Both the position numbers and the translations under genes were made by a program. The notes below the pieces were generated by a model. The model was given only the letters and a program-made list of their open reading frames with translations, searched no databases and was not told the DNA's origin. A stretch of 64,000 nt of DNA, from positions 7,354 to 71,353 of the forward strand of contig CAZIYD010000002.1 of the NCBI GenBank assembly GCA_964543375.1, read 5' to 3'. Within the stretch, counting starts at the first letter, position 1. Every line of letters starts with the position of its first letter. This document shows, piece after piece, positions 6,610 to 57,377 of this stretch. The stretch is from an uncultured Muribaculaceae bacterium (GTDB taxonomy: Bacteria; Bacillota_I; Bacilli_A; RF39; UBA660).

Positions 6610-6612
6610 TTT

Positions 6613-6906: not shown

Positions 6907-6910
6907 AATT

Positions 6911-9176: not shown

Positions 9177-9178
9177 TA

Positions 9179-9258
9179 AAAATGACGTACACGAATCGGG
9201 TTTGATTGGCTGCTACCTCTCGGTCCTGACCTGGTTATCAAGTGACTCGTTACGTCTC
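9179..9258 (-). ncRNA. ffs: signal recognition particle RNA (small 4.5S-type)
   Basis: Minus-strand sequence GAUAACCAGGUCAGGACCGAGAGGUAGCAGCCAAUCAAACC matches the universal SRP RNA domain IV (E. coli ACCAGGUCAGGUCCGGAAGGAAGCAGCCAAGG). Flanking GACGUA...UACGUC closing helix and a 3' U-run. Length about 80-100 nt, so the ends are approximate. Confidence 0.75.
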
Positions 9259-9262
9259 TTTA

Positions 9263-9291
9263 ATTATATTTTATAAGTTAAAATTAATCAA
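9263..9291 (-). promoter_or_regulatory. promoter of SRP RNA gene
   Basis: Minus strand TTGATT-17nt-TATAAT, ending about 7 nt upstream of the predicted SRP RNA 5' end. Confidence 0.5.
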
Positions 9292-16362: not shown

Positions 16363-16401
16363 CCAAATATATTATATCATTAAAAAAAAGAGTATTAAAC
16401 T

Positions 16402-17013: not shown

Positions 17014-17014
17014 A

Positions 17015-18028: not shown

Positions 18029-18036
18029 ATTTACCT

Positions 18037-18375
18037 CTAAAGATTTTTTAATAAATCAACAAGTTCATTTTCTTTTTCTCTATAATCTAAATTTAAGATT
18101 AAACTTCTTGCTATTATTATGTAATCCAATTTTTTTAATTTTTCTCTGTTATTATCAATTATATTTTTTAATTGACGTTTGATTTTATTTCTAACCACTG
18201 CTATTCCTATTTTTTTGGGAATAGATATACCAACTCTATATTTATCTTTTTTTTTGTCTATATAATATATTACATAGTACTTATTTTTTAATAATTTCCC
18301 GTTTTTTATTATGTTATTAAAATCTTCATTAGATTTAACTATATTTATTTTTTTCATTAATACTCCACATAACAA
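18037..18375 (-). CDS. rnpA: ribonuclease P protein component
   Basis: 112 aa. Basic protein with KYRVGISIPKKIGIAVVRNKIKRQLKN (RNR motif region). Follows rpmH. Confidence 0.92.
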   Translation of the reverse strand: MLCGVLMKKINIVKSNEDFNNIIKNGKLLKNKYYVIYYIDKKKDKYRVGISIPKKIGIAVVRNKIKRQLKNIIDNNREKLKKLDYIIIARSLILNLDYREKENELVDLLKNL

Positions 18376-18378
18376 AAA

Positions 18379-18395
18379 ACCACTAAAGTGGTGTT
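18379..18395 (-). terminator. hairpin plus U-run between rpmH and rnpA (partial terminator/attenuator)
   Basis: Minus strand ACCACTTTAGTGGTTTTTTGTT: 6-bp stem ACCACT/AGTGGT followed by a U-run. A partial terminator at this position is known in Bacillus rpmH-rnpA. Confidence 0.4.
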
Positions 18396-18524
18396 CTATT
18401 TAGTTAATTTTTTTCTTCCTTTTTTTCTTCTAGCTGAAACAACACCAGAATCTGCTTTTTTTCGAGCAAAGAATCCATGTATCTTTTTAGCTTTAGATTT
18501 ATTAGGTTGATATGTTCTTTTCAT
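18396..18524 (-). CDS. rpmH: 50S ribosomal protein L34 (ORF absent from the supplied track)
   Basis: Manual translation [42 protein letters not shown] (42 aa) is a canonical L34. RBS GGAGGAAGT precedes the ATG. Located at oriC upstream of rnpA. Confidence 0.9.
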
Positions 18525-18540
18525 ACTTCCTCCTCTTCTT

Positions 18541-18816
18541 AAAACATTATAATTATAAAGGTTAAGCATTTAAAAGTCAATTAAAAAATTATAAACATAT
18601 TAACATACTTGTTGATTAAAAATAATAGTTGTTAATTACAAAAAATATATGATTTTGTGGATAAGTGTATTCTTTTACTATAAAAACTAATAATTAGTTG
18701 TTATTAACTCTGTGGATAAGTTGTTATTAACTTGTTATTTATTATTTTGTTGTTTAATTTTTGAAGAAAATGATTTACAATATAGTTAAATTGTTTGAAA
18801 GTAGGAGGTAAATTTT
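18541..18816. promoter_or_regulatory. oriC region upstream of dnaA with DnaA boxes
   Basis: Two perfect DnaA boxes (TGTGGATAA, the complement of TTATCCACA) at 18657-18665 and 18711-18719, AT-rich flanks and the dnaA promoter region. Confidence 0.75.
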
Positions 18817-20166
18817 ATGGATGAAATAAAATTATGGGAAAATTTTTTAAATTTAATTAAAGATAAAATATCTCCTATATCATATGATACTTGGTTTAGT
18901 GATACAAAATTACATAAAATAGAAAATAAAAAGATATTTATTATAGTTCCCATGAACATTCACAAAAAAAATATTCAAGAAAATTATTCAGATTTATTAA
19001 AAGAAACTATTAACTCTTTAACAGGAACTAATTTTGAATTTATATTTTTATTAGAAGAAGAAATCAATGTTAAAGATGTAAACAATGTAGAAGAGGGTGT
19101 CCCTTTTAATAATCCTATACAAGCTAATTTAAATCCTAATTATACTTTTGATACTTTTGTTATTGGAGAAACTAATAGAATGTCATTTACTGCTGCTTTT
19201 GCGGTTGCAGAAAGACCGGGAAAAGCATATAATCCACTATTTTTATATGGTAGTAGTGGTCTTGGAAAAACTCATTTAATGCAAGCTATTGGAAATTATA
19301 TAATTGAAAATACTAATAAAAAGGTTTTATATATAACAAGTGATAAATTTAAATCAGATTTTATAGCAATAAATAAGAGAAAACATGATGAAAATAATAT
19401 AGAATATGTTGATTCTTTTAAAGAAAAATACAGAAATATAGATGTATTAATAATAGATGATATACAATTTCTAGCAGGCGCTACCGAAAGTCAAACAGAA
19501 TTTTTTCATACATTTAATGAACTTCATCAAGAAGGAAAACAAATAATAATTTCTTCAGACAGATCTCCAGATGATTTAAAATTACTAGAAGAACGTTTAA
19601 GAACTAGATTTAACTGGGGACTTGCAGTAAATATATTTCCACCTGATTATGAACTTAGAATTGAAATATTAAAGAAGAAGTTATCTGTTCACGATATAGC
19701 TAGACCTATAAAAGAAGATGTTCTTGTATTTATTGCTACCAATTGTGCTTCAGATGTAAGAAAGTTAGAAGGAGCATTAAATAGATTATTTGCTTATACA
19801 GCAATGTTTAATAAAGAAATTATAGATATTGATGTTGCTAAAGAAGCCTTAAATGATTTTTTAAGTAGTACTGAATATATAAAAAATAATATTCAAAAAA
19901 TTCAAAAAATTGTAAGTGATTTTTATCAAATAACCGTTGAAGATTTAAATTCTAAAAAAAGAAATAATAAGGTTGCTTTTCCTAGACAAGTAGCAATGTA
20001 TTTATCTAGACAATTAACAGATGAAAGTTTTCCTAGAATTGGTATAGAATTTGGGGGAAGAGATCATACAACGGTAATACATGCATGTAATAAAATTGAA
20101 CAAGAAATTAAAAATAATAAAGAATTTAAAAATACAATAGAGTTGTTGAAAAAGAAGTTAAAATAA
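18817..20166 (+). CDS. dnaA: chromosomal replication initiator protein DnaA
   Basis: 449 aa. AAA+ Walker A GSSGLGKTHL, sensor motifs, C-terminal DNA-binding helix VAMYLSRQLTDESFPRIGIEFGGRDHTTVIHA. Confidence 0.97.
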   Translation: MDEIKLWENFLNLIKDKISPISYDTWFSDTKLHKIENKKIFIIVPMNIHKKNIQENYSDLLKETINSLTGTNFEFIFLLEEEINVKDVNNVEEGVPFNNPIQANLNPNYTFDTFVIGETNRMSFTAAFAVAERPGKAYNPLFLYGSSGLGKTHLMQAIGNYIIENTNKKVLYITSDKFKSDFIAINKRKHDENNIEYVDSFKEKYRNIDVLIIDDIQFLAGATESQTEFFHTFNELHQEGKQIIISSDRSPDDLKLLEERLRTRFNWGLAVNIFPPDYELRIEILKKKLSVHDIARPIKEDVLVFIATNCASDVRKLEGALNRLFAYTAMFNKEIIDIDVAKEALNDFLSSTEYIKNNIQKIQKIVSDFYQITVEDLNSKKRNNKVAFPRQVAMYLSRQLTDESFPRIGIEFGGRDHTTVIHACNKIEQEIKNNKEFKNTIELLKKKLK

Positions 20167-41988: not shown

Positions 41989-42065
41989 GGCGGCATTGGT
42001 GAAGTGGTTAACACGCTAGATTGTGGCTCTAGTATACGTGGGTTCGATTCCCACATGTCGCCCCA
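41989..42065 (+). tRNA. tRNA-His (anticodon GTG)
   Basis: Cloverleaf read manually. Extra 5' G-1 pairing with discriminator C73 (His hallmark), acceptor GCGGCAT/ATGTCGC, anticodon loop TTGTGGC giving GTG, T-arm GGTTCGATTCC, encoded CCA. Confidence 0.9.
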
Positions 42066-42175: not shown

Positions 42176-42199
42176 AAAAACGAGATTATCTCGTTTTTT
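42176..42199. terminator. bidirectional terminator hairpin
   Basis: AAAAACGAGATAATCTCGTTTTTT: palindromic stem flanked by A-run and T-run. Serves the minus-strand gene 42198-43283. Confidence 0.5.
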
Positions 42200-43283
42200 A
42201 TTTTACTGAATTATAAGTATTACCTATTTTATAATTATCTTGATATATACTCACTTCACCTAAAGTCATTGATTTAGATCTATATTGTTGTGCATATAAT
42301 ATATTTGATGTTTTTCCATCCCAATTTCTTCCAGAGTCTAATGTCCTAAAATAATATATTTGTTTTCCATTAAATAGAGTCTGTTTATTTCCGTTATACC
42401 AAAGTTCAGCAAATCCAACATTGGGATCGGTAGACATCTTCAAGTGAACAATAATGTTTTCCCATCTTAAACCCCTGGATAGTTCTGGCCCGCTCCATAC
42501 CGTTGTGTGAATTGTTCTCGTTCCGGATGTTTGAGCTGAATTAAAAACTATTCTATCATTTGAAACTCCAAATCCAATAGTAGGACTACCGCCCCAAGGG
42601 GGACCATAAACTTGCGCTACACCAAACCAATCCGTTAATTTAGGAAAATTCTCCGGAAAAAATATAGAAAAACTTATATAGTATTCTCCATTTTCCTCTA
42701 AAAGATTTCTACTTAATGTTTGTGCTCTTGGATCACTTGTTGGAGAACCACTACAAAATTCTTTTGTATCATTATCCAAAACAGTGTACATTCCTACTTT
42801 GTTATTTGGATTTAATGGATCATTTACAACACTTATTCTATTTGGACAAGATTGTTTGTGATACCACTGTGATAAATCTCCTGTTTCAAAATCAGCATTA
42901 AATAATAATTTATCAGTTATGACAGGAACTTCTACTGGCTTAACAGGTTCTTCTGGAACCATTTCTGGTTCTTGGTCTTTTGGTTTTTCTTCAATTATTG
43001 TTGGAGTAACTGGAGTTACAACATCCTCTTTAGGGGAGGTAACCGATTCTTCTTTATTGGGTATAACTGACTCCTCTTTAGTGGAATCAATTATTGTTTC
43101 TTTTTCATCTTCGGAAACAGCCTCTTTAATATTTTCGTTTTTCTCTTCTCTAATATTAGTGGATTTATTTTTATTTATATTAGAGTTCTTTTTTGATATA
43201 AGTAAAAGATTAACAGATAATATAATCAATAACATTACTGTTATTCCAACCAATATTATAATTATTTTCTTTTTATCATACAT
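42198..43283 (-). CDS. membrane-anchored secreted protein with Pro/Glu-rich linker and concanavalin-like (putative polysaccharide lyase) domain
   Basis: 361 aa. N-terminal TM IIIILVGITVMLLIILSV, PEV-rich linker, C-terminal beta-rich domain (WFGVAQVYGPPWGGSPTIGFGV, LWYNGNKQ) reminiscent of heparin-lyase-I-like/PL-type lectin folds. Family not verifiable here. Confidence 0.45.
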   Translation of the reverse strand: MYDKKKIIIILVGITVMLLIILSVNLLLISKKNSNINKNKSTNIREEKNENIKEAVSEDEKETIIDSTKEESVIPNKEESVTSPKEDVVTPVTPTIIEEKPKDQEPEMVPEEPVKPVEVPVITDKLLFNADFETGDLSQWYHKQSCPNRISVVNDPLNPNNKVGMYTVLDNDTKEFCSGSPTSDPRAQTLSRNLLEENGEYYISFSIFFPENFPKLTDWFGVAQVYGPPWGGSPTIGFGVSNDRIVFNSAQTSGTRTIHTTVWSGPELSRGLRWENIIVHLKMSTDPNVGFAELWYNGNKQTLFNGKQIYYFRTLDSGRNWDGKTSNILYAQQYRSKSMTLGEVSIYQDNYKIGNTYNSVK

Positions 43284-45240: not shown

Positions 45241-45810
45241 ATGGAAAGAGGAAAAAATTCGCAAGTTATAATCATTGGAATATTGGCGGTTGCCTTGTTG
45301 GTTATGTCAGTAGGTTATGCTGCAGCATTTAACACAACTTTAAACATTAATGGTACAGCTACTGCTAAAGCTGCAAAGTGGGATGTTAGTTTTGATACTG
45401 CAAGTTATGCAGAATCAACTGGAAGCGTACAAGCTACAAATCATAATGTTACTGGAACAACTGCATCTTATACGATTACATTGACAAAACCCGGCGATTT
45501 TTATGAGTTTTCTGTAAACGCTGTTAATGGTGGTACTTTTGATGCTAATCTTACAAAGGTTACTTTAAGTGCTCTTAGCGCTGCTCAAGCTGAATATATT
45601 GAATATTCATTAAATTATGCAGGAACAGAGTATACAGCAACAACTGATAGTCTATCTGTTTTATTGGCTGCAAAAAATGATGGTGACACCGATACTGCTA
45701 CAGTAAAAGTTAGAGTTGAATATGTTCAACCTGCTGATGCTGCAAATTTGCCAACATCTGATCAAACAATAACTTTGACAGCTGCATTGGATTACACACA
45801 AGCACAATAA
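45241..45810 (+). CDS. secreted protein with SipW-cognate (TasA/camelysin-class) signal peptide; Ala/Thr-rich candidate fibre subunit
   Basis: 189 aa. N-terminal h-region then VGYAAAF (cf. TasA GGGTWAAFND, CalY GGGTFAFFSD). Strong RBS TAAGGAGGTAAG. Composition differs from neighbours (GC-richer, Ala/Thr/Gly-rich). Confidence 0.6.
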   Translation: MERGKNSQVIIIGILAVALLVMSVGYAAAFNTTLNINGTATAKAAKWDVSFDTASYAESTGSVQATNHNVTGTTASYTITLTKPGDFYEFSVNAVNGGTFDANLTKVTLSALSAAQAEYIEYSLNYAGTEYTATTDSLSVLLAAKNDGDTDTATVKVRVEYVQPADAANLPTSDQTITLTAALDYTQAQ

Positions 45811-45841: not shown

Positions 45842-46981
45842 ATGAAAAAGAACGAAACAACTATATACTTTGTTTTGGGATTATTAATAATCTTTGCCTT
45901 TATATATTATTTTTTAGTGCAAAATAATTATAATAGTTTTATTGCAGAAACAATATATTTGATTTTTAATGGAGCAATTGCTATATTTTTATATTTTAAG
46001 TTTAATTTAAAACAAAAAAATAAAAAGTTAAATAAAGTAACTACTAGAACTATTATAATAGTTTTTATGAGCACTTTATTGGCAATATATTTAAGTGGAT
46101 TATTTTTGGGTTTTTCTAGGAGTGTATTTTTATTAAAACCATATAATATATTTCTTAACACTTATCCAGTAATACTTTCTGCTTTATTTTTAGAAGTAAT
46201 AAGATATGAGGTTGCTCAAAACTCAAGAAACAAGAACACTCTATTAATATTATTAACAATATATTTTATAGTTTTTAGTTTGGTTTTAAGTGCAAAAACA
46301 TATAGTTTTCATAACAATGAACAAATATTTAGATTTTTTTGTATATATTTTTGTCCGATTTTTGCAAAAGAAATGTTATACAGTTATTTATCATATCATG
46401 TTGGAATCAAATCAACATTTGTCTCAAGAATCATATTTGATTTATACCCGTATGTGTTTCCAATATATCCAAATTTAGGAGAATATTTGAATTGCATAAT
46501 GTTTTTGGTGATCCCTTATATTATATATGCTAAAACTAGTAATTATGTTAAATATGTTGAACAAAATAAAGAGTATAATAGTATTAATAGATGGGTAATG
46601 TTTGTACCATTATTTTTGTTTTTTTTAATAATATTTATTTTATCGTTTGGAATCACTAAATATAAGTTAATTGCTATAGCTACTGGTTCAATGAAGCCGG
46701 TATATGATAGAGGCGATACAATAATATATGAAAAAATGGGAGCAAATAATATATATGTTGGGGAAGTGTTGGCTTTCAAATATAATGGTGTTACTATTAC
46801 TCATAGAGTAGTAAGTAAGTATAAAAATGGAGAAAAGTATATTTTTAAAACAAAAGGTGATGCTAATAAAGATATTGATTTCTTTGAAGTAACAGAAAAC
46901 GAAGTTTTGGGGAAAGTAGAATTTGTTATTCCTTATATTGGGTTCCCATCAATTTTAATTAAAGATTTACTTGGTAAATAG
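45842..46981 (+). CDS. SipW-type (archaeal/ER-type, S26B) signal peptidase I fused to an N-terminal polytopic membrane domain
   Basis: 379 aa. C-terminal about 110 aa contain IAIATGSMKPVYDRGD (catalytic Ser in the SM motif) and VTITHRVV (catalytic His), as in SipW. N-terminal about 260 aa comprise 7-8 predicted TM helices. Confidence 0.7.
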   Translation: MKKNETTIYFVLGLLIIFAFIYYFLVQNNYNSFIAETIYLIFNGAIAIFLYFKFNLKQKNKKLNKVTTRTIIIVFMSTLLAIYLSGLFLGFSRSVFLLKPYNIFLNTYPVILSALFLEVIRYEVAQNSRNKNTLLILLTIYFIVFSLVLSAKTYSFHNNEQIFRFFCIYFCPIFAKEMLYSYLSYHVGIKSTFVSRIIFDLYPYVFPIYPNLGEYLNCIMFLVIPYIIYAKTSNYVKYVEQNKEYNSINRWVMFVPLFLFFLIIFILSFGITKYKLIAIATGSMKPVYDRGDTIIYEKMGANNIYVGEVLAFKYNGVTITHRVVSKYKNGEKYIFKTKGDANKDIDFFEVTENEVLGKVEFVIPYIGFPSILIKDLLGK

Positions 46982-46992
46982 GGTGATAAAAC

Positions 46993-48081
46993 ATGTCAAA
47001 AAATAAATTATTTTTAAAATATTTTTGTTTGTGTATAATAATAGTAATATTAATGCTTTTTAGTTTTTTTATGTTTAAAAAAGGTTTTAGCAATAAAGAA
47101 CAATATGTATTGTCTTACAATAAAACTTCATTAATTGATTACAAAGTGTATTTAAAAGATAATGATTTTTTTGATGTTTCGTTTTTAACTAAAGAAGAAT
47201 TAATAAGAAATAATAGATCAATAATTACAAATTTGATAGATTATTTAGAAATTAATTATAAATATGATATGAAATATTCTGATGTAGTAAAAGGAGAATA
47301 TACATATTATGTTGAATTAATATTAAAAGCTAATAAAATGAATAGTGAAGATAAAAACTATTGGGATAAAACATATCAAATAACAGAACCTAAGAAATTA
47401 ATAATTAATAATGAAAAAAATTTTGGTATTATTCAAAATGTTAAAATAGATTATGAAAAATATAATAATATTTTAGATGATTTTAAGAAGCAACAGGGTT
47501 TGGCGACAAATGGGAATTTAGAAGTAGCTCTCGTTGTTGAGTCTAATGTTAAAAACGAAAAAATAACAAAAAAAATAAATTTAAATAATAGAGAAAGTTT
47601 TAATATACCTCTTTCACAAATGGCGGTAGATGCATCTATAACTTTAGATGAAAAAGGGGAAAAAATAGGTAGTGTTAATGAAACGATTAAATCAAATGAT
47701 TTTAAATTTACAAAATATAAAATAATTGCCCTACTATCAAGTTCTTTGTCGATTACTTTTTTAATAGTATTGATAATTTTAATTAGGTACGATAGAACCT
47801 TGCGCGAGTATAGTATTAAATTAAAAAAAATATTAAGTGGTTATGATGATATTGTCGTAAATGTAAATGTACTTCCCGATGTGAGTAAATTAAACATTAT
47901 ACATGTTGAATCTTTTGCTGAGTTGTTAAATGCTCATGGTGAAGTTAGAATGCCCATTAATTGCTATATAAGTAAAAGAAAAAATAAAGCAACTTTTATA
48001 CTCATAAATGAACCTATTGCGTGGGTATATATATTAAAAGATAAAAATTTGAAAAAGAGTGATATAGATGAAAAATATTAA
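46993..48081 (+). CDS. two-TM membrane protein of unknown function (candidate assembly/anchoring factor)
   Basis: 362 aa. N-terminal TM CLCIIIVILMLFSFFMF, large middle domain, second TM IIALLSSSLSITFLIVLIILI, cytoplasmic tail. Overlaps the next gene by 14 bp. Confidence 0.5.
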   Translation: MSKNKLFLKYFCLCIIIVILMLFSFFMFKKGFSNKEQYVLSYNKTSLIDYKVYLKDNDFFDVSFLTKEELIRNNRSIITNLIDYLEINYKYDMKYSDVVKGEYTYYVELILKANKMNSEDKNYWDKTYQITEPKKLIINNEKNFGIIQNVKIDYEKYNNILDDFKKQQGLATNGNLEVALVVESNVKNEKITKKINLNNRESFNIPLSQMAVDASITLDEKGEKIGSVNETIKSNDFKFTKYKIIALLSSSLSITFLIVLIILIRYDRTLREYSIKLKKILSGYDDIVVNVNVLPDVSKLNIIHVESFAELLNAHGEVRMPINCYISKRKNKATFILINEPIAWVYILKDKNLKKSDIDEKY

Positions 48082-50398
48082 AAAAACATTTTTGTTATTA
48101 CTTTTTTTAGTTCTTTTATCATTTATTACTGTTGGATATGCATATTATACTAAATTATTGAATATTTCTGGTGTTGTTACGATTCCGAATTATGGAAAAG
48201 TATTAATTACCCAAATTAATATGATAGACAGTATGAGTGTAACCGAAAATACACCCACTGTTGTAAATGGCTTAAATTTTGATTTTAATTTAACTATTTC
48301 AGGAAACACATCACAACATTATATTACATATGCTGTTACTCTATCAAATAATTCTGTAGAGGATGTTGTTTATATAGATGCAAATATTAATTGTAACATT
48401 GTACCAAATAGTGGTGATGATACGGCAACATATAATATAGAATTAACGGGTATAAATAGTGGTGATATTATACCGGCAGGAGAGAGTGTAGTAATTCAAT
48501 CTAAAATTATATTTGAAGTAAGTAATCCAAATAATATATATGTAGCAACTGGTAGTATATCTAATGATACCAGTACTGATCAAAGTGGAACATTATTGGG
48601 TAGTATAACTGGTTCAAATACAGGGGACTTAACTGGCAGTAATACGATAACTGATTTTAATTTAAATGTTATAAATTCTTATTCTGTTAATAAAAACTTT
48701 AAAATATTTGTTACTAATTCTAGTAATTTTGAAATATGTGATGAAAACGGAACAGCAAATATTAGTTTTGATATAAATGCTAATTCTCAAGAAAATTATA
48801 CATTCTATATTAAGAAAAAAGATGGAGCGTTATTTCCGAATAATACGGAAAGTTTAAATTTAACATTAAAATCTATTGGTGTACCTAATTGTTCTTTAGG
48901 AACTATAACCATTAGTGTTGACCCATCGCCTGTAGCAGACGCTGAAGCCCCGATTATAAGTAGTGTTACAGCAAACCAAGATACAACTGTTGGGAATGTT
49001 ACTGTTGCTTGGAATGCACAAGATGACTCAACTATTACAAGTTTTACAGTAAATGTTTATAATAGTAGTGGAGTCTTACAAAAAACTGTTAATACATCTG
49101 GAGAAACAACAACTGTTATTAATAATTTAGCTGATGGCACATATTATTTTACTGTTTTTGGCACAGATACACTTGGTAATACTGCAACAGTGCAAGAAAT
49201 TGGCAATGCAACCACTTCTTCTGGGCACGCATCAAGGTCTAGTAATTTGATTTGTAAATGGACTTATACTGTTAATACATCCGGACTAAAAAATATGTCT
49301 TCTAACGGAACTTCAACGGCCAAAAAGGGAACTACATATACAGCAACTTTAACTGCTGCAAGTAACTATACTTTGCCAAACACTATAACTGTAGTAATGA
49401 ATGGTGTAACATTAACTTCTGGAAGCGGTTATTCATATGTTCAGAATACCGGAAAGTTAGACATATACAACGTTAATGGCGATATAAGTATATCTGGTAC
49501 AGCGACATCAAACACTTGTTTAGCAAAAGGAACTTTAATAAAAACATATAATGGATATAAAAAAATAGAAGATATATATTATGATGATTTATTAGAGGTG
49601 TATGATCATATAAGAGGAGTTTTTACCTATAGTTATCCAATATGGATAGAAGAAGCAAAAGAAACAGATAATTATATTTTAGTAACTTTTTCAGATAATA
49701 GTAATTTAAAAGTAGTGTCTTCACATTCGGTATTTGATGTTGATAAAAAAAGATATGTAGAAGTAAATGGTGAATTAAAAGTAAATGATCGAGTATACAA
49801 ATATAATAATGGAAAATTAGATATAGTAACAGTAAAAGGAATTAAAAAAGTTTTTGAAAACACCAAATATTATAATGTTGTAAGTTCCTATTATTATAAC
49901 ATTATAGCAAATAATCTTTTAACTACAGATTCAACATCGAGCATTTCTAACATATATGGTTTTAAAGATAATGCGATATATGATGATAATTTCTACAACA
50001 TTTCTAATGGACCCAAATTAGAATATAAAGATGTTAAAATGATCCCATATTATTTATATAAAGGACTTAATTTACAAAACGCTTTACCTTTAGTTAACAA
50101 TGGATTTAATTATGATTTCTTAACAACATTTTTAAAATTAAAAACTAAAAATCCCATTCAAATTAATAATGTTAACCATTGGATATTTAATGTTAATGGG
50201 GAAAAAATGTTAGTATCTGAAGGTAGTGTTCAAAAAGTGCCATTTACGCTTGATAAATATTATACTAAAGATAATGCTAAAAAATCATTGTTTGGATTGA
50301 GAAAACAAAAATATTATGATACTAGTAGTAATACATATTATTATTCTGGAGATAAAATAAAAATAAATCATAGTGTGTATTTAGAAAAAATAGATTGA
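48068..50398 (+). CDS. large secreted protein: SipW-cognate signal peptide, Ig/FN3-like modules, Hint (bacterial intein-like) domain and unknown about 240-aa C-terminal module
   Basis: 776 aa. Signal region with VGYAYYTK. FN3-like segment (AEAPIISSVTANQDTTVGNVTVAWNAQDDSTITSFTVNVYN...GTYYFTVFGTD). Hint block A CLAKGTLIKTYNGYKKIEDI, block B-like VVSSHSVFDV and block G-like YNIIANN. C-terminal region with no recognisable motif. Confidence 0.6.
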   Translation: MKNIKKTFLLLLFLVLLSFITVGYAYYTKLLNISGVVTIPNYGKVLITQINMIDSMSVTENTPTVVNGLNFDFNLTISGNTSQHYITYAVTLSNNSVEDVVYIDANINCNIVPNSGDDTATYNIELTGINSGDIIPAGESVVIQSKIIFEVSNPNNIYVATGSISNDTSTDQSGTLLGSITGSNTGDLTGSNTITDFNLNVINSYSVNKNFKIFVTNSSNFEICDENGTANISFDINANSQENYTFYIKKKDGALFPNNTESLNLTLKSIGVPNCSLGTITISVDPSPVADAEAPIISSVTANQDTTVGNVTVAWNAQDDSTITSFTVNVYNSSGVLQKTVNTSGETTTVINNLADGTYYFTVFGTDTLGNTATVQEIGNATTSSGHASRSSNLICKWTYTVNTSGLKNMSSNGTSTAKKGTTYTATLTAASNYTLPNTITVVMNGVTLTSGSGYSYVQNTGKLDIYNVNGDISISGTATSNTCLAKGTLIKTYNGYKKIEDIYYDDLLEVYDHIRGVFTYSYPIWIEEAKETDNYILVTFSDNSNLKVVSSHSVFDVDKKRYVEVNGELKVNDRVYKYNNGKLDIVTVKGIKKVFENTKYYNVVSSYYYNIIANNLLTTDSTSSISNIYGFKDNAIYDDNFYNISNGPKLEYKDVKMIPYYLYKGLNLQNALPLVNNGFNYDFLTTFLKLKTKNPIQINNVNHWIFNVNGEKMLVSEGSVQKVPFTLDKYYTKDNAKKSLFGLRKQKYYDTSSNTYYYSGDKIKINHSVYLEKID

Positions 50399-50481: not shown

Positions 50482-50979
50482 ATGAATAAAATAGTAGGTA
50501 GGGTATTAGTGTGCGTGTATTTATCTTTTGTGGTTATCTTATCACTATATTTATTTATGTATAGTCGTTTTGGAACATCTTCCATTGGAAAATACGTTGT
50601 TTTTAATGCTGAAAATATTAAATCATTTAGCAATGGCTCTTTAGTTGTGTCAAAGCACGAAGAAAAAGAACTAAATATAGATGATTCTATATTGTTTTAT
50701 AATGTTTATTCAACTAAAAAAGGAGTTTTAGAACAAAAAATAGTTTCTAAAGAAAAACTAAATGAAAAAGAAATAACATACGGTTTAGATAATAATAAGT
50801 TTGTTTCGAGTTCTTATGTTATAGGAAGTGTATCAAAATCTAATGCTATACCACTTCTTGGGCACATATTTAAAGTGTTGTCATCTTCTTTGGGCTATTT
50901 AATTTTTGCGCTGATTCCTACATTGTTTATGTTTGTTCTACAAGTTAGACAACTAACTAAAAAGTATAACATTAGGTGA
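50482..50979 (+). CDS. SipW-like membrane protein lacking catalytic Ser and His (predicted inactive pseudo-peptidase)
   Basis: 165 aa with N-TM and C-TM like SipW. Aligns with the canonical SipW at 55526: VVFNAENIKSF vs IFTVATGSMEP (Ser replaced), GVLEQKIVSKE vs GKVITHRVIEI (His replaced by Lys). C-terminal TM LGYLIFALIPTLFMF vs IGFYLLIVIPVAILI. Confidence 0.45.
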   Translation: MNKIVGRVLVCVYLSFVVILSLYLFMYSRFGTSSIGKYVVFNAENIKSFSNGSLVVSKHEEKELNIDDSILFYNVYSTKKGVLEQKIVSKEKLNEKEITYGLDNNKFVSSSYVIGSVSKSNAIPLLGHIFKVLSSSLGYLIFALIPTLFMFVLQVRQLTKKYNIR

Positions 50980-50982
50980 TTT

Positions 50983-51897
50983 ATGTTTGAAAAGTTAAAG
51001 AACAATAAATTAATCCTTCTAATAATTATAGTTGCTTCTCTTGGATTTTTAACTACTTTTGGAAGGTTTGTATACAATGAAATAAAGAAGAATTATTTCT
51101 TAACCCAAAATTTTTATTTTGAAAGCGACAAACTAAAAGAAAAACAAGTTTTATATAAAATAAATAACTATAATGGTGTAGATAGTTATGATATAGTTAT
51201 AAATATGAATAGTATAAAGAACAACAAAATAATAGCGAGCGAAGATATATCTTATGACATATCATATAATTGCTCTAGTAACGCAAATTGCAGTATAACA
51301 AAAACAAATGGTGTTATATATAAAGAAACAGGAACAGACTACTTTGTAATATCTATAAGTCCAAACACTACTCTTACTGATGGGAATGAAATGCTTTTGG
51401 AATTAATAGCAAGTTCTACTTCTCCATACGAAAAAACATTAAGCGCAAAGTTTCAGTTAGTAGTAGGAAACTATGGACTATCTTATGAGATAAATGATTC
51501 TGTAAATAGTCCTTATTTAGAATTAAAAGTAACAAACACTTTGGACTATTATAAAGTAAAGACAGCGTTTGGAACTTACGCCATAGATGACAAAATAGAT
51601 ATAGAAACCTATCTTACTCTAAGTGATAATGATAAAGCTAAGTGTGCATCTGCAATAATAAACTTAAGTTTTGATCCGAGTGTTGTAATATTTGATAATG
51701 CAACAGGAGTAGATGGAGAGGTTACTAATCAAACAACAACAAACATCGGAGGACATAACTATATAAATGGTATATCATTTAAAGTAGATGCAATATCATC
51801 AAGTGTAGTTAGATTTTATAAGAAAAACTCAAATAATAATTACACATATCCAATAACCAATCCAACATCTATAATCGGTGTAACATATACTTTGTAG
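50983..51897 (+). CDS. secreted/anchored beta-rich protein of unknown function
   Basis: 304 aa. N-terminal TM/signal LILLIIIVASLGFLTTFGRFVYNE (weak SipW-cognate-like TTFGRF), Ser/Thr/Asn-rich beta-type sequence. Confidence 0.5.
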   Translation: MFEKLKNNKLILLIIIVASLGFLTTFGRFVYNEIKKNYFLTQNFYFESDKLKEKQVLYKINNYNGVDSYDIVINMNSIKNNKIIASEDISYDISYNCSSNANCSITKTNGVIYKETGTDYFVISISPNTTLTDGNEMLLELIASSTSPYEKTLSAKFQLVVGNYGLSYEINDSVNSPYLELKVTNTLDYYKVKTAFGTYAIDDKIDIETYLTLSDNDKAKCASAIINLSFDPSVVIFDNATGVDGEVTNQTTTNIGGHNYINGISFKVDAISSSVVRFYKKNSNNNYTYPITNPTSIIGVTYTL

Positions 51898-51907
51898 GAG
51901 GTAAATA

Positions 51908-52876
51908 ATGAAATACAATATAGTAACAGAATATATTAATTTTGCGAAGTCTTGTGTAAACAAATATCTTAAAAAGATATTAGGTAAGTATTACAATCAA
52001 GAATATGCGAGCAGACTATTAAATGTATATATGAATTCTAGATATTTTGATATTTATTTATCTTCACAATCAAATTTAGAAGTAGATATTAGAGAAAATT
52101 TAAAGAGTTCTGCGGGTAGAATAAAGAATGAAGAAAACAAAACAGAACTAGAAAACTTGATTAAAGTTTTTGAATATATATTTTATTTTGATAACGTAGT
52201 AGAGTGCCCGTCTATAAATGAAAAAATTGATGAAATAGAAGCGTTTAGGAAAGACTCCCTAGGTATAAATAAGAACAAAAAATTTAATCAAGATCTTTTT
52301 GATACTATAAGAGATGATTTAATAAAGAAAAAAGAATACTTAGATACTGTGGAAAGTAAAAAGTTTGATTTTGATTGTACTTTAACTAATATTAAAAACT
52401 TATATGATGTGACTTTGACTCATAATTTAAAATTTCCTGTAGTATATAACTCTACAGTAATAGATAAGGTTTTTAACTCAAAAGAATTATCACAAAGAAA
52501 GGCAGTAGTAGAGTTTTCTTATGCTGCACTTAAAGTTTTAAAGGATACTATAAAGGGAAATTTTGAATACAAATATTTAGTTCAATATCCATCTGGAATA
52601 AGTAAAAAGAAAACATTAAGTAAAAAGATGTTTAGTATATTAGATAATGATATACTTAAAGATAAGATATTTATAAAGATAAATTATGATGACTTTGATA
52701 AAGAAAAAGATGAAATATATAGTTACATGAGAGAGGGATATAAGTTTGTAGTAATTTTAGAAAAGAATATAAATGTTGAAAAGATAGAATTATTATCTAT
52801 ATTTAAATATATAATGATGGATAAAAACAAAAGGATAGAAGGGTTAAATAAATTTAAAAACTTAATATTTATTTAA
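51908..52876 (+). CDS. cytoplasmic protein of unknown function, first gene of the McrB-like operon
   Basis: 322 aa, no TM or signal. 10 bp upstream of the McrB-like GTPase gene. RBS GGAGGTAAATA. Confidence 0.5.
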   Translation: MKYNIVTEYINFAKSCVNKYLKKILGKYYNQEYASRLLNVYMNSRYFDIYLSSQSNLEVDIRENLKSSAGRIKNEENKTELENLIKVFEYIFYFDNVVECPSINEKIDEIEAFRKDSLGINKNKKFNQDLFDTIRDDLIKKKEYLDTVESKKFDFDCTLTNIKNLYDVTLTHNLKFPVVYNSTVIDKVFNSKELSQRKAVVEFSYAALKVLKDTIKGNFEYKYLVQYPSGISKKKTLSKKMFSILDNDILKDKIFIKINYDDFDKEKDEIYSYMREGYKFVVILEKNINVEKIELLSIFKYIMMDKNKRIEGLNKFKNLIFI

Positions 52877-52885: not shown

Positions 52886-54406
52886 ATGGAAACATTTTTA
52901 AGATTTTTATATGAGATGCTTGCTAACTTCTTTGGAGGTTTAATTCATATATTTAAAGCAATATATGAGTCTTTTAGCATGACTTTTAATATAAAAAGTT
53001 ATATTTCCATAATAAATCACTATAAAGGAGATTTTTCTACTCCCGAATGGTTGTTAGTTGGCCTTGTAATAATAATAATGTTAGCTATAATAGTTGGAAT
53101 AATAGTATTAATAATTGTACTAGTTAGAAAGTATATGAGAATAAGAAAAACTTTGGTAGAACAAGAAACACTGCTTGAAGAAGTGGGAAATTTAAATAAA
53201 AAAGTTTTAAGTTTATCTAAAGAGAAAGATGAAATACTCGCTATGAAAGTATCTCAACTAGGATTAAAACCAGGAGAATCGCCTACCGAAGAATTACCTG
53301 AGGGAGAAGAAGTATTATCTGATGAAAACATAAGATTCTCTAAATTGCATCAAATTGATAAAGATTATATAAATTATAAAGTTCAAAATTATGGGAATAC
53401 ATTTACTTTGCCAGAACTTGTAGATATGTTTAGAAACTTTGCTGCAGCTCAACTTGGTTTATTCTACAAAGAAGAGATGATAAGATTATTTATATCTGCT
53501 CTAGCCTCTACAAAGTTAATAATACTTCAAGGTATATCTGGAACAGGTAAAACATCTTTGGCGTATGCTTGGGGAAAGTTTTTAGATAATGACTCTTGTG
53601 TTGCATCAGTTCAACCATCTTGGAGAGATAGAACAGAATTATTTGGTTACTTTAATGAGTTTACTAAAAAGTTTAATGAAACAGATGTGCTTAAAGAAAT
53701 ATATACAGCGGGTTATACCGATGATATATATACAGTAATACTAGATGAGATGAACATATCTAGAGTTGAGTACTATTTCGCAGAAATGTTATCTATATTA
53801 GAAATGCCGAATAAAGATGAGTGGATAGTTGAACTAGTATCTAGCCCATGGGATAGCGACCCTAAATATGTTAAAGGTGGTAAATTAAAAATAGTACCTA
53901 ATGTTTGGTATATAGGTACTATAAATAATGATGACTCTACATTTATGGTAACGGATAAGGTATACGATAGAGCGATGCCTATTGATATAAATGAAAAGGG
54001 TCAAGAATTTGATGCTAAAGACATTCCGGCACAACACATAAATTATACTTATTTAGATAATTTATTTGAAACTGCTATGAATACATATAGCATATCTGAT
54101 GAAACATTAAAGAAAATAGAAGAAATGGACGATTATGTAATACAACACTTTAGAATAGCATTCGGTAATCGTATTGTAAGTCATATGAAAAAATTTGTTC
54201 CAGTATATATGGCCTGTGGTGGTGATGAAATAGATGGGGTTGATTACTTCGTTGCTAGAAAAATACTTAGAAAATTTGAACAATTAAATATATCTTACAT
54301 AAGAGATGAAGTTGATGGATATGTAGATTTTCTTAATAAGACATTTGGAAAAGACAAGATGAAAGAATCTATAGAATATCTAATTAGACTTAAGAAAAAT
54401 ACATAG
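52886..54406 (+). CDS. membrane-anchored McrB-family (AAA_5) GTPase
   Basis: 506 aa. Walker A ILQGISGTGKTSLA, Walker B TVILDEMN followed by the McrB signature ISRVEYYFAEMLSILE (cf. DEINRANISKIFGELITLLE) and PNVWYIGTINNDDSTF (cf. McrB NFYIIGTMNTADRS). N-terminus has TM helix LLVGLVIIIMLAIIVGIIVLIIVLV, positive-inside RKYMRIRK, and a coiled-coil instead of a DNA-binding domain. Confidence 0.7.
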   Translation: METFLRFLYEMLANFFGGLIHIFKAIYESFSMTFNIKSYISIINHYKGDFSTPEWLLVGLVIIIMLAIIVGIIVLIIVLVRKYMRIRKTLVEQETLLEEVGNLNKKVLSLSKEKDEILAMKVSQLGLKPGESPTEELPEGEEVLSDENIRFSKLHQIDKDYINYKVQNYGNTFTLPELVDMFRNFAAAQLGLFYKEEMIRLFISALASTKLIILQGISGTGKTSLAYAWGKFLDNDSCVASVQPSWRDRTELFGYFNEFTKKFNETDVLKEIYTAGYTDDIYTVILDEMNISRVEYYFAEMLSILEMPNKDEWIVELVSSPWDSDPKYVKGGKLKIVPNVWYIGTINNDDSTFMVTDKVYDRAMPIDINEKGQEFDAKDIPAQHINYTYLDNLFETAMNTYSISDETLKKIEEMDDYVIQHFRIAFGNRIVSHMKKFVPVYMACGGDEIDGVDYFVARKILRKFEQLNISYIRDEVDGYVDFLNKTFGKDKMKESIEYLIRLKKNT

Positions 54407-54414
54407 GTGTTCTT

Positions 54415-55557
54415 ATGGATGATTTGAAGTTATTTGATTTATACAATAGATCTAACGAAAAAAAGAAGGGGGATTTTTGGAAGAATGTAGATGCTTCACT
54501 TCAAGTAGAACACAATTTTGAAAAAAATATAATAGATGATAAATGGTTACTTATGATGGAGGAGACTGTAAGATATTTAGATAATATCTTAAGAAACCCC
54601 AATAGATTTATAATAAATGAAGAAGAAATAGTAAAGATAGAACTTGCAAGAAGAATAACTGTAGACAGTATAAAACATTTATCTAAGAATACCAATTTTA
54701 TACAAGATATAGACGAAGAAAGTGGAGATGTAAAGCCATCTAAAATTTTAAATATAAATAAGGAAGAAAGCTTTAATACGTATGAAAATAGATTTATATA
54801 TAGTTTGATAAAAAACATGAGAATCTATATAGATATGAAAAAAAGAGATATGGATCTTGGTGCTAATGATAAAAGCGATAAGATAATGAATTATGAGGGA
54901 AGAACTAAGGTTGGAAAAGAAAATGTAAATATAAATGTATCTCTTAGATCAACACTGAATAAGGCAGATGATGAGAATTCTTTAGAAAAAAGAATAGAGA
55001 GATTGGAACTTAGAATAAGTGATTTAATGAATACTGATGTTTATAGGACTATAGATAAGCTTAGAATAAGTTTAGTTAACTCTCCAATAAAGAAAACAAA
55101 CTTAATATTAAAAAACACAAACTTTCAGTATGCTGTTAAACTTTGGAACTTTATCCAAGAAAATTTAAAAGATGAAACAAAAGTAGAAGCAGGGAACGAA
55201 ATTTTAAAAGATGATGAAACATTGAAAGATTTCATGGATGAGATATTTATGCTTAACTACTTCGTTGTTAATACGCTTGAAAAAGATGAACCAGAAGAAG
55301 AAAAACAAAAAAAAGTTTCCGAAGTATTAATACAAAACTTAATACAAAAGTTAATATTAACTAACAAGAACATGACAAAGGGTGATTTGAGCAAGGCTGT
55401 ATCAGAACAATATAAATTAATAAAAGATCAGACTCTTGCAACCGAAAAAGAAATCCAAGAAATATTTAAATTAGCAATAAACGAGTATAATAAATCTATA
55501 AGTAATCTAAAACTAAGGAGTACAAATGCAAAAAATAAAAGAAAACCAAATTCTTAA
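54415..55557 (+). CDS. McrC N-terminal-domain-like (DUF2357-like) partner protein, no recognisable nuclease motif
   Basis: 380 aa. Helix NTYENRFIYSLIKNM aligns with the conserved McrC N-domain segment LANRIIKSTLAIL. No hD.K / PD-(D/E)xK motif found in the C-terminal half. 8 bp downstream of the GTPase gene. Confidence 0.45.
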   Translation: MDDLKLFDLYNRSNEKKKGDFWKNVDASLQVEHNFEKNIIDDKWLLMMEETVRYLDNILRNPNRFIINEEEIVKIELARRITVDSIKHLSKNTNFIQDIDEESGDVKPSKILNINKEESFNTYENRFIYSLIKNMRIYIDMKKRDMDLGANDKSDKIMNYEGRTKVGKENVNINVSLRSTLNKADDENSLEKRIERLELRISDLMNTDVYRTIDKLRISLVNSPIKKTNLILKNTNFQYAVKLWNFIQENLKDETKVEAGNEILKDDETLKDFMDEIFMLNYFVVNTLEKDEPEEEKQKKVSEVLIQNLIQKLILTNKNMTKGDLSKAVSEQYKLIKDQTLATEKEIQEIFKLAINEYNKSISNLKLRSTNAKNKRKPNS

Positions 55558-56107
55558 ATATTTGTGGAAAACAATAAAAATAATTGTGACATTATTTATT
55601 TTAATTATTATAGGTATAATAATAACTCAAAGAATATTTAATAATAATGTTTCTGTTTTGGGCTACAGGATATTCACGGTTGCAACTGGAAGTATGGAAC
55701 CTGAATATAAGGTTATGGATATACTATTTGTAAAAGAATCAAAAGAATCTCAAATAAAAGTAGGAGATGATGTAGTATATTTAGGAAAAGGTGGAACTTT
55801 TGATGGAAAAGTAATAACGCACAGAGTAATAGAGATAGAAAAAGAAAATGATATAGTGTCATTTCATACAAAGGGTATTGCAAATGATATAGAGGATCCA
55901 ATTGTCTACTATGATCAAATATACGGTAAAGTAATATACAAAGGAGTAGTACTTAGTTTTGTTAATAAAATAATAAACAACCCAATAGGCTTTTATTTAC
56001 TTATAGTAATACCCGTTGCAATCTTAATAACGCTCGAAATAATAGATAGAAAAAAAGAAAAAGATGAAAAAATAATAGAAGAGGAAATATTAGATTTAGA
56101 TGAATAA
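55526..56107 (+). CDS. sipW: signal peptidase I, SipW type (S26B)
   Basis: 193 aa. N-TM, RIFTVATGSMEPEYKVMD (Ser-Met), KVITHRVIEI (His), C-terminal TM IGFYLLIVIPVAILITL plus basic tail: canonical SipW architecture. RBS CTAAGGAG. Confidence 0.8.
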   Translation: MQKIKENQILKYLWKTIKIIVTLFILIIIGIIITQRIFNNNVSVLGYRIFTVATGSMEPEYKVMDILFVKESKESQIKVGDDVVYLGKGGTFDGKVITHRVIEIEKENDIVSFHTKGIANDIEDPIVYYDQIYGKVIYKGVVLSFVNKIINNPIGFYLLIVIPVAILITLEIIDRKKEKDEKIIEEEILDLDE

Positions 56108-56702
56108 AAAAAATGATGCAGTTATAAAAACTTTAAAGAAAAGTATGCGTCTGAAAGTTTTACTTTTATTAGCAATAATATTGACTTTCAATACTTTTGC
56201 GTGGTTTATATATTCATCTGCTGTATCTAATAGCATAACTACATCAGTTAGAGCTTGGAAGATAGAATTTGAAAATGATAGCCAAACAACGCAATATATA
56301 GAGTTTGATATAGATGATTTATATCCGGGAATGCCAGAATATAATAACTATATAAACGTAGTTAATTATGGTGAAACAGCGGCAACACTAACTTATGAAA
56401 TTATGAGCTTCAAGGTTTTGGGAACCGAATATACTAATCCGCCAGAAACAACTGGTGATCTTGAAAATATTATTGAAAATAATTACCCATTTAAAATAAA
56501 TCTAAATCTTACTAATTCAGACTTAACTCCAGAAAGTGGATCTTCAGAGTTTACAATAAATGTGAAATGGCCATTTGAAAGTGGGGATGATGAAGAAGAT
56601 ACCCTATGGGGACATAGAGCATATACTTATAAGCAAGAAAATCCAACTTTAAAGCAAATATCTATTAATATAAAACTTACTGCAAATCAAGTTAATCCGT
56701 GA
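56100..56702 (+). CDS. secreted protein with SipW-cognate signal peptide (paralog of 45241 and 56692 genes)
   Basis: 200 aa. Signal LLLLAIILTFNTFAWFIYSS, then RAWKIEFEND matching AKWDVSFDTAS (45241 gene) and ARWQISIND (56692 gene). Confidence 0.6.
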   Translation: MNKKNDAVIKTLKKSMRLKVLLLLAIILTFNTFAWFIYSSAVSNSITTSVRAWKIEFENDSQTTQYIEFDIDDLYPGMPEYNNYINVVNYGETAATLTYEIMSFKVLGTEYTNPPETTGDLENIIENNYPFKINLNLTNSDLTPESGSSEFTINVKWPFESGDDEEDTLWGHRAYTYKQENPTLKQISINIKLTANQVNP

Positions 56703-57282
56703 TTTGTTTGAACTTTATAGCAACATTTAAAATTGCTTTCCCTTGATTTATCGCAGCTGTAGTATCTGCGCTGTTGTTCATGTTCTCCTCATCGAAATCT
56801 TCCCATGTTATATAAACTCTTATACTGTTAGTCCTGTTTGTATTTGTTATTAGTATGTCTTTATCTATATTGGTCATGTTACCATTTACTGGAATAATTG
56901 CACCCCCATTTTCAGAATAACCAGTAACCTTTAAATCAGAAACTTCACTACTTGTCGATATACTTGTTGTTATTCCATAATTGAATGATACATCGACGTT
57001 TGTATAGTTTAAAATTAAATCAAAATAACCTAAAGATTGTGGAGCAATTACACCGTCCTTTACATTTGGATTATTCAATAAAGTTGGAGTTATTACATTA
57101 GTAATATATGAATCTGTAATTATATCTTGATCATTTATTGATATTTGCCATCTAGCAATGTTTACACTTGCTTGTCCTTCTGCCTCCGTGTTATATTTAG
57201 CATATGTTTCCTGCACAAAAGATATTAAAACGAAAAGAGATAAGAATGCAACTACTAATTTTAAATTTTTAAAGTTAAACAT
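56692..57282 (-). CDS. secreted protein with TasA-class signal (paralog of 45241 and 56100 genes), convergent and overlapping with 56100 gene
   Basis: 196 aa. MFNFKNLKLVVAFLSLFVLISFVQETYAKYNTEAEGQASVNIARWQISIND, beta-rich C-terminus. 3' ends overlap by 11 bp with the plus-strand gene. Confidence 0.5.
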   Translation of the reverse strand: MFNFKNLKLVVAFLSLFVLISFVQETYAKYNTEAEGQASVNIARWQISINDQDIITDSYITNVITPTLLNNPNVKDGVIAPQSLGYFDLILNYTNVDVSFNYGITTSISTSSEVSDLKVTGYSENGGAIIPVNGNMTNIDKDILITNTNRTNSIRVYITWEDFDEENMNNSADTTAAINQGKAILNVAIKFKQITD

Positions 57283-57377
57283 AACATACTCCTTCCTTTA
57301 CTATATGTTAACACCAGCTATTGTAAATATCAATTAATAAAATGTAAAATATACAGTGTGTTTACAAAAATTTATAA

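Follow-up and report, generated by a model that had tools for sequence, protein, structure and literature searches.

The subject of this report is a 379-amino-acid membrane protein encoded in a stretch of 64,000 nucleotides from an uncultured Muribaculaceae bacterium (contig CAZIYD010000002.1, positions 7,354 to 71,353 of the forward strand; the whole stretch is hereafter called the window, and positions are numbered within it). Its gene joins, in one reading frame, an N-terminal membrane domain of eight helices to a signal peptidase I domain of the archaeal and endoplasmic reticulum (ER) type, and it lies between the genes of an AbpX-like fibre subunit and a DUF5305 protein. The reading favoured here, to which a probability of roughly 0.55 is given, is that the protein is the dedicated signal peptidase of a donor-strand fibre operon of the AbpX/TasA type, and that its CPBP-like N-terminal domain serves as a scaffold or gate in cis.

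Fibres of the TasA and AbpX type are major components of the biofilm matrix in both bacteria and archaea, and are built by donor-strand complementation without a chaperone-usher system; the way in which cells coordinate the secretion of the subunits with their cleavage and assembly at the membrane is an open issue in the field. Signal peptidases with multiple transmembrane (TM) helices that are linked to AbpX are already known, being mentioned, uncharacterised, in a 2026 preprint (bioRxiv 10.64898/2026.01.04.697558), and the gene in the window is a member, with nine TMs, of this family, which has been noticed but not analysed in the literature. New here are the assignment of the extra helices to a CPBP-like fold, the finding that the His motifs of CPBP proteins are lost while a Glu and an Arg are kept, the observation that the fusion is obligate and its family large, a strictly conserved neighbourhood of three genes, and the resemblance to the SpbR-SpsB pair of Staphylococcus aureus. 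The fusion thereby links two recent and separate observations, namely the ten-TM signal peptidases of AbpX loci and the binding and control of a signal peptidase by SpbR, and offers a natural single-chain model for the control of single-pass membrane enzymes by CPBP-fold scaffolds.

Architecture and peptidase domain

The gene (45842..46981, + strand) is a single unbroken open reading frame (ORF) of 379 codons. Residues 259-372 of its product match the NCBIfam model TIGR02228 (archaeal/ER-type signal peptidase I) with 80.7 bits against a cut-off of 51.85, and a profile of the fused family, built from 48 homologues, matches human SEC11A with an E value of 3.7e-23. When the window sequence alone is aligned with SEC11C, GSMKP is paired with GSMEP, THRV with VHRV, and TKGDAN with TKGDNN. 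The catalytic domain (residues 272-379, 46655..46978, +) is of the Ser-His type: the catalytic Ser of the SM box (S283, in GSMKP), the His that replaces the bacterial Lys as the general base (H321-R322, in THRV) and the GDxN...D box (K338-G339-D340-x-N342, with D346) are all present. S283, M284, H321, R322, G339, D340, N342 and D346 are invariant in the alignment of 48 homologues and 99-100% conserved across 256 full-length members of the family. Judged by its profile match and its catalytic boxes, the C-terminal part is a real signal peptidase of the ER/archaeal type, as the original prediction of an intact catalytic module had it.

The protein nevertheless differs from SipW in its family score and in its build. 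Its score against the SipW equivalog NF046067 is 57.7 bits where 190 are required, and in place of the approximately 190 residues of SipW, with one N-terminal and one C-terminal TM, it has 379 residues, eight extra helices and no C-terminal TM. An AlphaFold2 model of the full chain (pLDDT 88.9, pTM 0.85) and hydropathy analysis agree on eight long helices within residues 3-240, essentially the 7-8 helices in about 260 residues counted earlier. They are followed in the model by an anchor helix at 250-269 (helices 250-253 and 255-269) and then by the beta-rich catalytic domain. The anchor, TM9 (residues ~250-271, 46589..46654, +), includes the strongest hydropathy peak of the chain (253-271), brings the total to nine TM helices, and is predicted to be the peptidase's own signal-anchor, the counterpart of the N-terminal TM of free-standing SipW. 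Past residue 271 there is no hydrophobic segment in either the hydropathy profile or the model, in line with the missing C-terminal TM that had been pointed out, and a short helix (368-378, roughly the last 12 residues) closes the chain.

With eight Lys or Arg residues in the loop 52-67 and five in the loop 231-250, the positive-inside rule predicts a topology in which the N-terminus is inside and the catalytic domain lies on the outer face of the membrane. The pTM of 0.85 for the whole chain suggests that the two domains are held in a defined arrangement.

Fold and degenerate motifs of the N-terminal domain

The N-terminal domain (N-domain; residues 1-246, 45842..46579, +) matches no family in scans of Pfam and NCBIfam. 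A Pfam scan of 32 family members with E values up to 10 gave no match to PF02517, only scattered single chance matches, and the sole match of an N-domain profile to sequences in the PDB (E 0.3) is also one of chance. At the level of sequence, therefore, the original view of a domain with no recognisable family still stands, but the fold does not bear it out. The only strong structural neighbours of the N-domain model are SpdC and Rce1, both of the CPBP/CAAX-protease fold, and a search with the full-length model leads to the same two. In Foldseek, four Rce1 chains rank at the top with probabilities of 0.97-1.00 and TM-scores of 0.53-0.58, although their E values (0.08-0.25) are not significant by themselves. 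The eight-helix Rce1-like membrane fold that characterises CPBP proteins is present in the model.

The conserved residues of the N-domain are G86, G90, E118, R121, P172, P207 and P210. Across 256 homologues E118 is conserved in 100% and R121 in 99%, as L-E-V-I-R in TM4; in the alignment of 48 homologues E118 is nearly invariant and R121 invariant, and in a further alignment both are invariant. The codons of E118-V-I-R121 (46193..46204, +) encode the sole putative remnant of CPBP motif 1, with a single Glu and with the spacing ExxR in place of EExxxR. Motif 2 (FxxxH) and motif 3 (HxxxN/D), with the catalytic His and Asn, are absent from the N-domain. No His is conserved in it, the maximum at any column being 20% across the 256 homologues, and no Cys is conserved in either the 48-homologue or the 256-homologue alignment.

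For comparison, genuine PF02517 proteins were fetched with a self-composed, consensus-like CPBP bait, and 40 of them were aligned; E182, E183, R187, F211, H215, H248 and N252 are invariant in this set. The hhalign alignment of the N-domain with it is colinear but not significant (probability 0.6%, E 0.096), and in this non-significant alignment EExxxR is paired with E118/R121 across a gap of one residue, FxxxH with F..L, and HxxxN with R196..D200, which are not conserved. A regular-expression search of the fetched loci found no canonical CPBP protein. The N-domain is best described, on the strength of the model, as a CPBP-like pseudo-protease, which has the fold of CPBP proteins and what looks like a vestige of their motif 1 but lacks the sequence and catalytic hallmarks of the family.

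Besides E118 and R121, the most conserved parts of the N-domain are two loops, G86-x-F-x-G90-F-x-K-S-P-Y after TM3 and P207-I-x-P210-N-L-G after TM7. Both loops lie on the predicted outer face and have a short beta bridge in the AlphaFold2 model, and they are candidate contacts for the catalytic domain or for the extended c-region of the substrate.

Conservation and distribution of the fusion

The identical protein, with the same neighbours, occurs on contigs from four independent samples. A word-indexed search retrieved 62 homologues of 23-100% identity, nearly all of 370-407 amino acids. A scan of GTDB species genomes yielded the best 80 loci, none of them from the species of the window, among which the closest are those of uncultured gut Bacilli and Tenericutes metagenome-assembled genomes (MAGs), with up to 39% identity; these loci were retrieved by full-length alignment, which biases them toward loci containing a peptidase. 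The fused family is found in MAGs of gut Bacilli, 'Tenericutes' and Clostridia, in Desulfovirgula, Anaerolineae and Chloroflexia, and in a Desulfurococcaceae archaeon and Methanosuratincola. Nine helices were counted in the window protein and in those other bacterial members that were inspected. The Desulfurococcaceae homologue (locus L058, 5791-7020, 409 aa) has an extra hydrophobic helix at its C-terminus, which makes ten, the number given in the 2026 preprint.

The domain census was made on 90 loci and the window. All 85 N-domain ORFs in this set also carry the peptidase domain, and 14 further ORFs consist of the peptidase only, mostly without AbpX-like or DUF5305 neighbours. Because peptidase motifs had guided the choice of these loci, 1.84 billion cluster representatives were also searched, in compensation, with a profile built from the N-domain only. 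It matched 1,744 clusters at E ≤ 1e-3 and 1,433 at E ≤ 1e-10. Of the 148 highest-ranking representatives that were examined, 129 have both domains and a length of at least 350 aa. The other 19 are shorter, with ends that vary, tails that appear frame-shifted, or breaks inside TM9 or the SGSM box, and look like fragments rather than members of a stand-alone N-domain class, of which no consistent example was seen among the 148. The fusion is obligate within the family, so that the question of its conservation in relatives, raised with the original prediction, is answered in the affirmative. The family is also a large one: clustered at 50% identity it comprises no fewer than 1,400 clusters, a good many of which come from MAGs of gut Bacilli and Clostridia.

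These data bear directly on the possibility of an artefact, of which a frameshift and an internal start had been named with the original prediction: a frameshift or an assembly error could have joined a membrane-protein gene to a sipW gene, or the peptidase could be made from an internal start. The codon of M253, just ahead of TM9 and with a weak purine-rich stretch before it, would suit such a start, but no convincing ribosome-binding site precedes this ATG. The occurrence of the same ORF in four samples, the single frame and the conserved length of hundreds of diverged bacterial and archaeal homologues, and the want of a consistent stand-alone N-domain class effectively refute the artefact.

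In P0174, a representative of 812 aa, Metallophos and 5'-nucleotidase C-terminal domains come after the N-domain and the first part of the peptidase; this protein probably reflects a chimera of gene calling or assembly, but could be a real alternative fusion.

Gene neighbourhood and putative substrates

The fused gene is the second of four consecutive genes on the + strand, 45241..45810, 45842..46981, 46993..48081 and 48068..50398, with spacings of 31, 11 and -14 nt. The first is preceded by a 248-nt leader and a strong ribosome-binding site (AAGGAGG). No riboswitch or other Rfam family was found in the leader, and a scan for promoters and terminators is uninformative in this AT-rich DNA (78 sites against 69.9 expected).

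The first gene (45241..45810, +) encodes a 189-aa precursor of an AbpX-like fibre subunit of the TasA superfamily, with a signal-anchor followed by VGYAAAFNTTLNINGTA, and is the putative substrate of the peptidase. A gene of this subunit family stands beside the fused peptidase gene in 83 of the 85 loci, and usually ends 10-100 nt before its start. A profile of 63 sequences of the subunit family matches AbpX in the PDB (9sj2_C, E 4.3e-11; 9rhp_A, E 4e-8), whereas the TasA structures (5of1, 8aur) are only marginal (E ~0.05). The alignment begins at residue 2 of AbpX (WSETLSL), on the family motif F-S-x-T-L-x-I. A weak match to Pfam Peptidase_M73/camelysin was also seen in five members of the subunit family.

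Across 82 members the N-terminal pattern of the subunits is [IV]-G(83%)-[YF](91%)-A(83%)-A-[FLYW]-[ST]-x-x-L(83%)-x-I(77%)-x-G(70%)-x-A, with its aromatic residue at a median precursor position of 29. Read from the alignment, this is the TasA/SipW pattern, in which the cut follows a small residue and an aromatic stands at P2'; TasA itself is cleaved at A|AFND, likewise with an aromatic at P2' (PMC10269814). The window subunit reads G25-Y-A-A-A-F30-N-T-T-L-N-I-N-G, and since G-Y-A-A-A-F30 fits this pattern, cleavage after A27 or A28 is likely. For the homologues of AbpX an aromatic is reported as the second mature residue and, in most cases, an acid as the fourth (bioRxiv 10.64898/2026.01.04.697558), and the pattern found here agrees with this.

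The third gene (46993..48081, +) encodes a protein of 362 aa that matches PF17231 (DUF5305) with 41.1 bits against a cut-off of 29, and that consists of an N-terminal TM, an extracellular domain, a second TM and a cytoplasmic tail. It is a putative accessory subunit of the peptidase. With iterated hidden Markov models (HMMs), an ORF of the DUF5305 family was found beside the fused peptidase gene in 77 of the 85 loci, mostly 0-30 nt downstream; in several of the loci without one, the peptidase gene is near the end of the contig. In a Clostridia/Eubacteriales subgroup (L043, L048, L053, L054, L056, L057, L062, L065, L069, L074, L078, L079, L081 and L085) the DUF5305-family protein encoded immediately after the fused peptidase is longer, 480-1150 aa versus about 350, which suggests that extra domains are fused to the accessory protein in these loci.

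The fourth gene (48068..50398, +), which overlaps the DUF5305 gene by 14 nt, encodes a large protein of 776 aa that shares the signal motif of the small subunit (TVGYAYYTKLLNISG). Its N-terminal domain is AbpX-like and its middle fn3/Ig-like, and its C-terminal region weakly resembles Hint domains. The protein matches the HMM of the small subunits with E 5e-07 and gives weak matches to fn3 and Big_13. Large proteins of about 600-900 aa hold the equivalent position in other loci, and the 776-aa protein is probably a minor, tip or anchor subunit and a putative second substrate. Its C-terminal ~290 residues (~484-776, 49517..50398) begin with CLAKGT, and the Hint-like part is followed by a region of about 130 aa. 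The matches of this C-terminal region are weak (Pfam Hint_2, E 0.038; TIGR01445, E 0.069; RadA intein in the PDB, E 0.034), and one possible reading of it is an autoprocessing module carried by a tip or anchor protein of the fibre.

This operon context, with a subunit of the AbpX/TasA type upstream and a DUF5305 protein downstream, was missed in the original prediction, and it is the context that explains the job of the enzyme. It also provides a rule for annotation: an AbpX-like subunit gene, a fused peptidase gene and a DUF5305 gene, accompanied in some loci by a gene for a large subunit-like protein, mark a fibre operon in uncultured gut bacteria.

Two GTDB loci, L016 and L017, each have two paralogous fused peptidase genes (5995..7155 and 11482..12609 in L016; 2246..3388 and 5845..6987 in L017). 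Both paralogues of L017 are preceded by an AbpX-like subunit gene of their own and adjoined by a DUF5305 gene of their own. In L016 a subunit gene likewise lies upstream of each, but only a single DUF5305 ORF (342 aa) was found, adjoining the first paralogue. These arrangements look like tandem duplications of much of the module.

Relation to known systems

In January 2026, the structures of AbpX were solved, AbpX was placed in the TasA superfamily, and its loci were described (bioRxiv 10.64898/2026.01.04.697558). In one sentence of that preprint the AbpX-linked signal peptidase I is given ten TM helices, and the peptidases listed are A0A1M6GRN4, A0A2R7Y7S8 and WP_338249487.1; the extra helices are assigned no fold, and CPBP, CAAX and Rce1 are absent from the text. 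DUF5305 is proposed there as an accessory subunit of signal peptidase I. The window gene resembles these peptidase genes in that it adjoins an AbpX-like subunit gene and a DUF5305 gene, in that a domain of the TIGR02228 type follows many TM helices, and in a spread over Bacillota, Chloroflexota and Thermoproteota, the comparison being one of descriptions. The window protein has nine TM helices rather than ten because the C-terminal TM is missing.

As with SipW of Bacillus subtilis and its substrates TasA and TapA, a Ser-His peptidase of the ER type is encoded beside the fibre subunit that is processed. The SipW system has TapA as its partner, whereas the partner gene of the fused peptidase is that of the DUF5305 protein. 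A dedicated peptidase and a DUF5305 protein also go together in TafD and TafG of the haloarchaeal Tat-fimbriae (PMC11821415), in which processing of the fibre subunit TafA depends on TafD, the signal peptidase of a locus containing DUF5305. In the same study DUF5305 was proposed to be functionally complementary to the peptidase, and fusions of peptidase and DUF5305 were noted. The catalytic domain is homologous to SEC11, and as in the eukaryotic signal peptidase complex (SPC), a catalytic subunit is combined with membrane accessory modules; the likeness of DUF5305 to accessory modules of the SPC was pointed out in the preprint (bioRxiv 10.64898/2026.01.04.697558).

The closest mechanistic precedent for the fused peptidase is the SpbR-SpsB pair of S. 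aureus (PMC12260438, PNAS 2025). SpbR is a degenerate CAAX-protease-like protein with the motifs HELYMR, FIYLD and QIVAI, in which the E...R remnant is kept. It forms a 1:1 complex with the signal peptidase SpsB through the TM helix of SpsB and a surface loop: the helix packs on TM5 and TM7 of SpbR, and the catalytic domain touches the surface loop, as verified by cysteine cross-links. SpbR inhibits the cleavage of LtaS and other substrates. SpdC and LnsB are further degenerate, non-catalytic CAAX-like partners of other membrane enzymes (PMC12260438). In both the S. aureus pair and the fused protein, likened here by description, a polytopic CAAX-like module with an E...R pair is associated with a type I signal peptidase. 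The fused family has the two modules in covalent association (85/85 locus ORFs, 129/148 representatives) and a peptidase of the Ser-His (ER/archaeal) type, while in S. aureus they are two proteins and the peptidase is of the Ser-Lys (P) type. Also, SpbR is an inhibitor, whereas the N-domain may act on the fused peptidase in either direction. The N-domain differs from both SpdC/LyrA and Rce1, which belong to PF02517, in having no PF02517 match and no motifs 2 and 3, and from each in function: the partner of SpdC is a glucosaminidase, and Rce1 is an active prenyl-protein protease. No literature link of SipW or TasA with CPBP or CAAX proteins in the sense of a signal-peptidase partner was found in the papers searched.

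Proposed mechanism and alternatives

Under the favoured reading, the Ser-His domain on the outer face would cleave the pre-subunits at G-[YF]-A | A-[FYW], the likely end of the signal-anchor, and cleavage would free the N-terminal strand for donor-strand polymerisation. The N-domain, as a scaffold or gate in cis, would pack against the anchor helix TM9 and the base of the catalytic domain and would control, probably together with the DUF5305 protein, which signal-anchors reach the active site. Substrates may be admitted laterally, or access may be blocked until the DUF5305 protein or a substrate engages. By analogy, SpbR acts in this manner on SpsB in trans, and SpdC acts equivalently on SagB.

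Several points weigh against such a mechanism. The invariant Glu and Arg speak for a specific function, one for which a purely passive scaffold has no obvious use, and the residues of SpbR equivalent to them have been mutated without a phenotype (PMC12260438). SpbR inhibits, and a permanently fused inhibitor makes little sense unless the substrate or the DUF5305 protein relieves the inhibition. There is no link to CPBP proteins at the sequence level, so that common ancestry rests on the fold and one short motif, and the fused family is known from genes and models.

Much of the evidence is also compatible with a reading that overlaps with that of a scaffold or gate but gives the N-domain another primary role, as part of an assembly platform. 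The N-domain and the DUF5305 protein would hold the signal-anchor of the basal subunit, with cleavage coupled to donor-strand insertion, and the whole would be a polymerisation machine. This is a possible account but clearly a less probable one: recombinant mature AbpX polymerises in vitro without any machinery (bioRxiv 10.64898/2026.01.04.697558), the match to SipA reflects the shared S26 fold, and binding of signal-anchors by the N-domain would be an additional assumption. It is unlikely that the N-domain is an active intramembrane glutamic protease, which would, for example, remove the cleaved signal peptides or cut the subunits a second time, and the protein would then be a fusion of two proteases. 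The CPBP fold and the strictly conserved Glu and Arg of TM4, at the position of motif 1, would agree with such an activity, as would the processing of secreted or sorted proteins by active CPBP enzymes such as the myxosortase MrtX, a sorting protease (PMC11980579). However, only one of the two glutamates of motif 1 is kept, motifs 2 and 3 are absent with no conserved His in their stead, and the known degenerate CPBP-like proteins SpdC, LnsB and SpbR are non-catalytic; the missing motifs 2 and 3 make a non-catalytic partner the more likely role.

The original prediction had gone in another direction, proposing that cleavage is coupled to a membrane transporter or to a sortase-like function, in concept like that of exosortases and archaeosortases. 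A transporter or exporter, or an exosortase-like transpeptidase, would suit a polytopic domain fused to a secretion-related enzyme but is now very improbable. The transporter was rejected, as the N-domain model, with SpdC and Rce1 as its neighbours, resembles none. An exosortase or archaeosortase was rejected as well, in view of the lack of a conserved Cys or His and of any exosortase model in the NCBIfam scan; no structure of an exosortase or archaeosortase is among the PDB structure matches, though it is uncertain whether the searched set contains one. The idea of a sortase-like function retains a partial echo in MrtX, in which a CPBP fold does serve protein sorting.

A wider extension of the scaffold or gate reading is offered tentatively, as a conjecture of low probability. 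Degenerate CPBP-fold domains could be ancient and general partners of type I signal peptidases and could form, with DUF5305, a prokaryotic multi-part complex that is the counterpart of the SPC. Such a complex would select signal-anchored fibre subunits in the membrane and link the cut to a donor-strand polymerisation that needs no chaperone, and E118 and R121, in a cytoplasm-facing cavity, would dock the charged n-region of the signal peptide.

Other features of the window

A second signal peptidase is encoded at 55526..56107. It has 193 aa and is of the canonical SipW-like form, with ATGSMEPEY...ITHRV and TMs at both the N- and C-terminus, and it is followed by genes for small secreted proteins at 56100..56702 (+), 56692..57282 (-) and 57484..58191 (+). 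The profile of the AbpX-like subunits gives no match to the small proteins of this locus (55526..58191; E > 0.4). With two separate loci of peptidase and small secreted proteins in 64 kb, and with different peptidase architectures, the organism possibly has two fibre systems.

Between the two peptidase loci, 52886..55557 encodes a 506-aa P-loop protein (GISGTGKTS) and then a 380-aa protein, the counterpart of which in L001, a contig of the same species, is annotated as PF09823 (DUF2357); the two genes may form a pair that contains an NTPase and serves restriction or defence. The three ORFs that directly follow the fibre operon (50482..52876; 165, 304 and 322 aa) are conserved only in L001 and have no Pfam match; the 165-aa protein has hydrophobic segments at its N- and C-terminus. 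Two genes upstream of the operon, 42198..43283 (-) encodes a 361-aa secreted protein, the identical counterpart of which in L002 is annotated as PF14099 (polysaccharide lyase).

The GC content of the window is 23-33%. At ~16000..20000 both the GC skew and the AT skew switch sign, the GC skew being about -0.20 before 18 kb and about +0.20 after 20 kb, and the minimum of the cumulative GC skew is in the 16-18 kb bin. This switch is consistent with a change of the coding or replication strand, and possibly with a replication origin or terminus. A bacterial small signal recognition particle (SRP) RNA at 9170..9266 (-; 46.4 bits) and a tRNA at 41990..42062 (+; 63.6 bits) indicate that the context is an ordinary chromosomal one and not that of a plasmid or phage.

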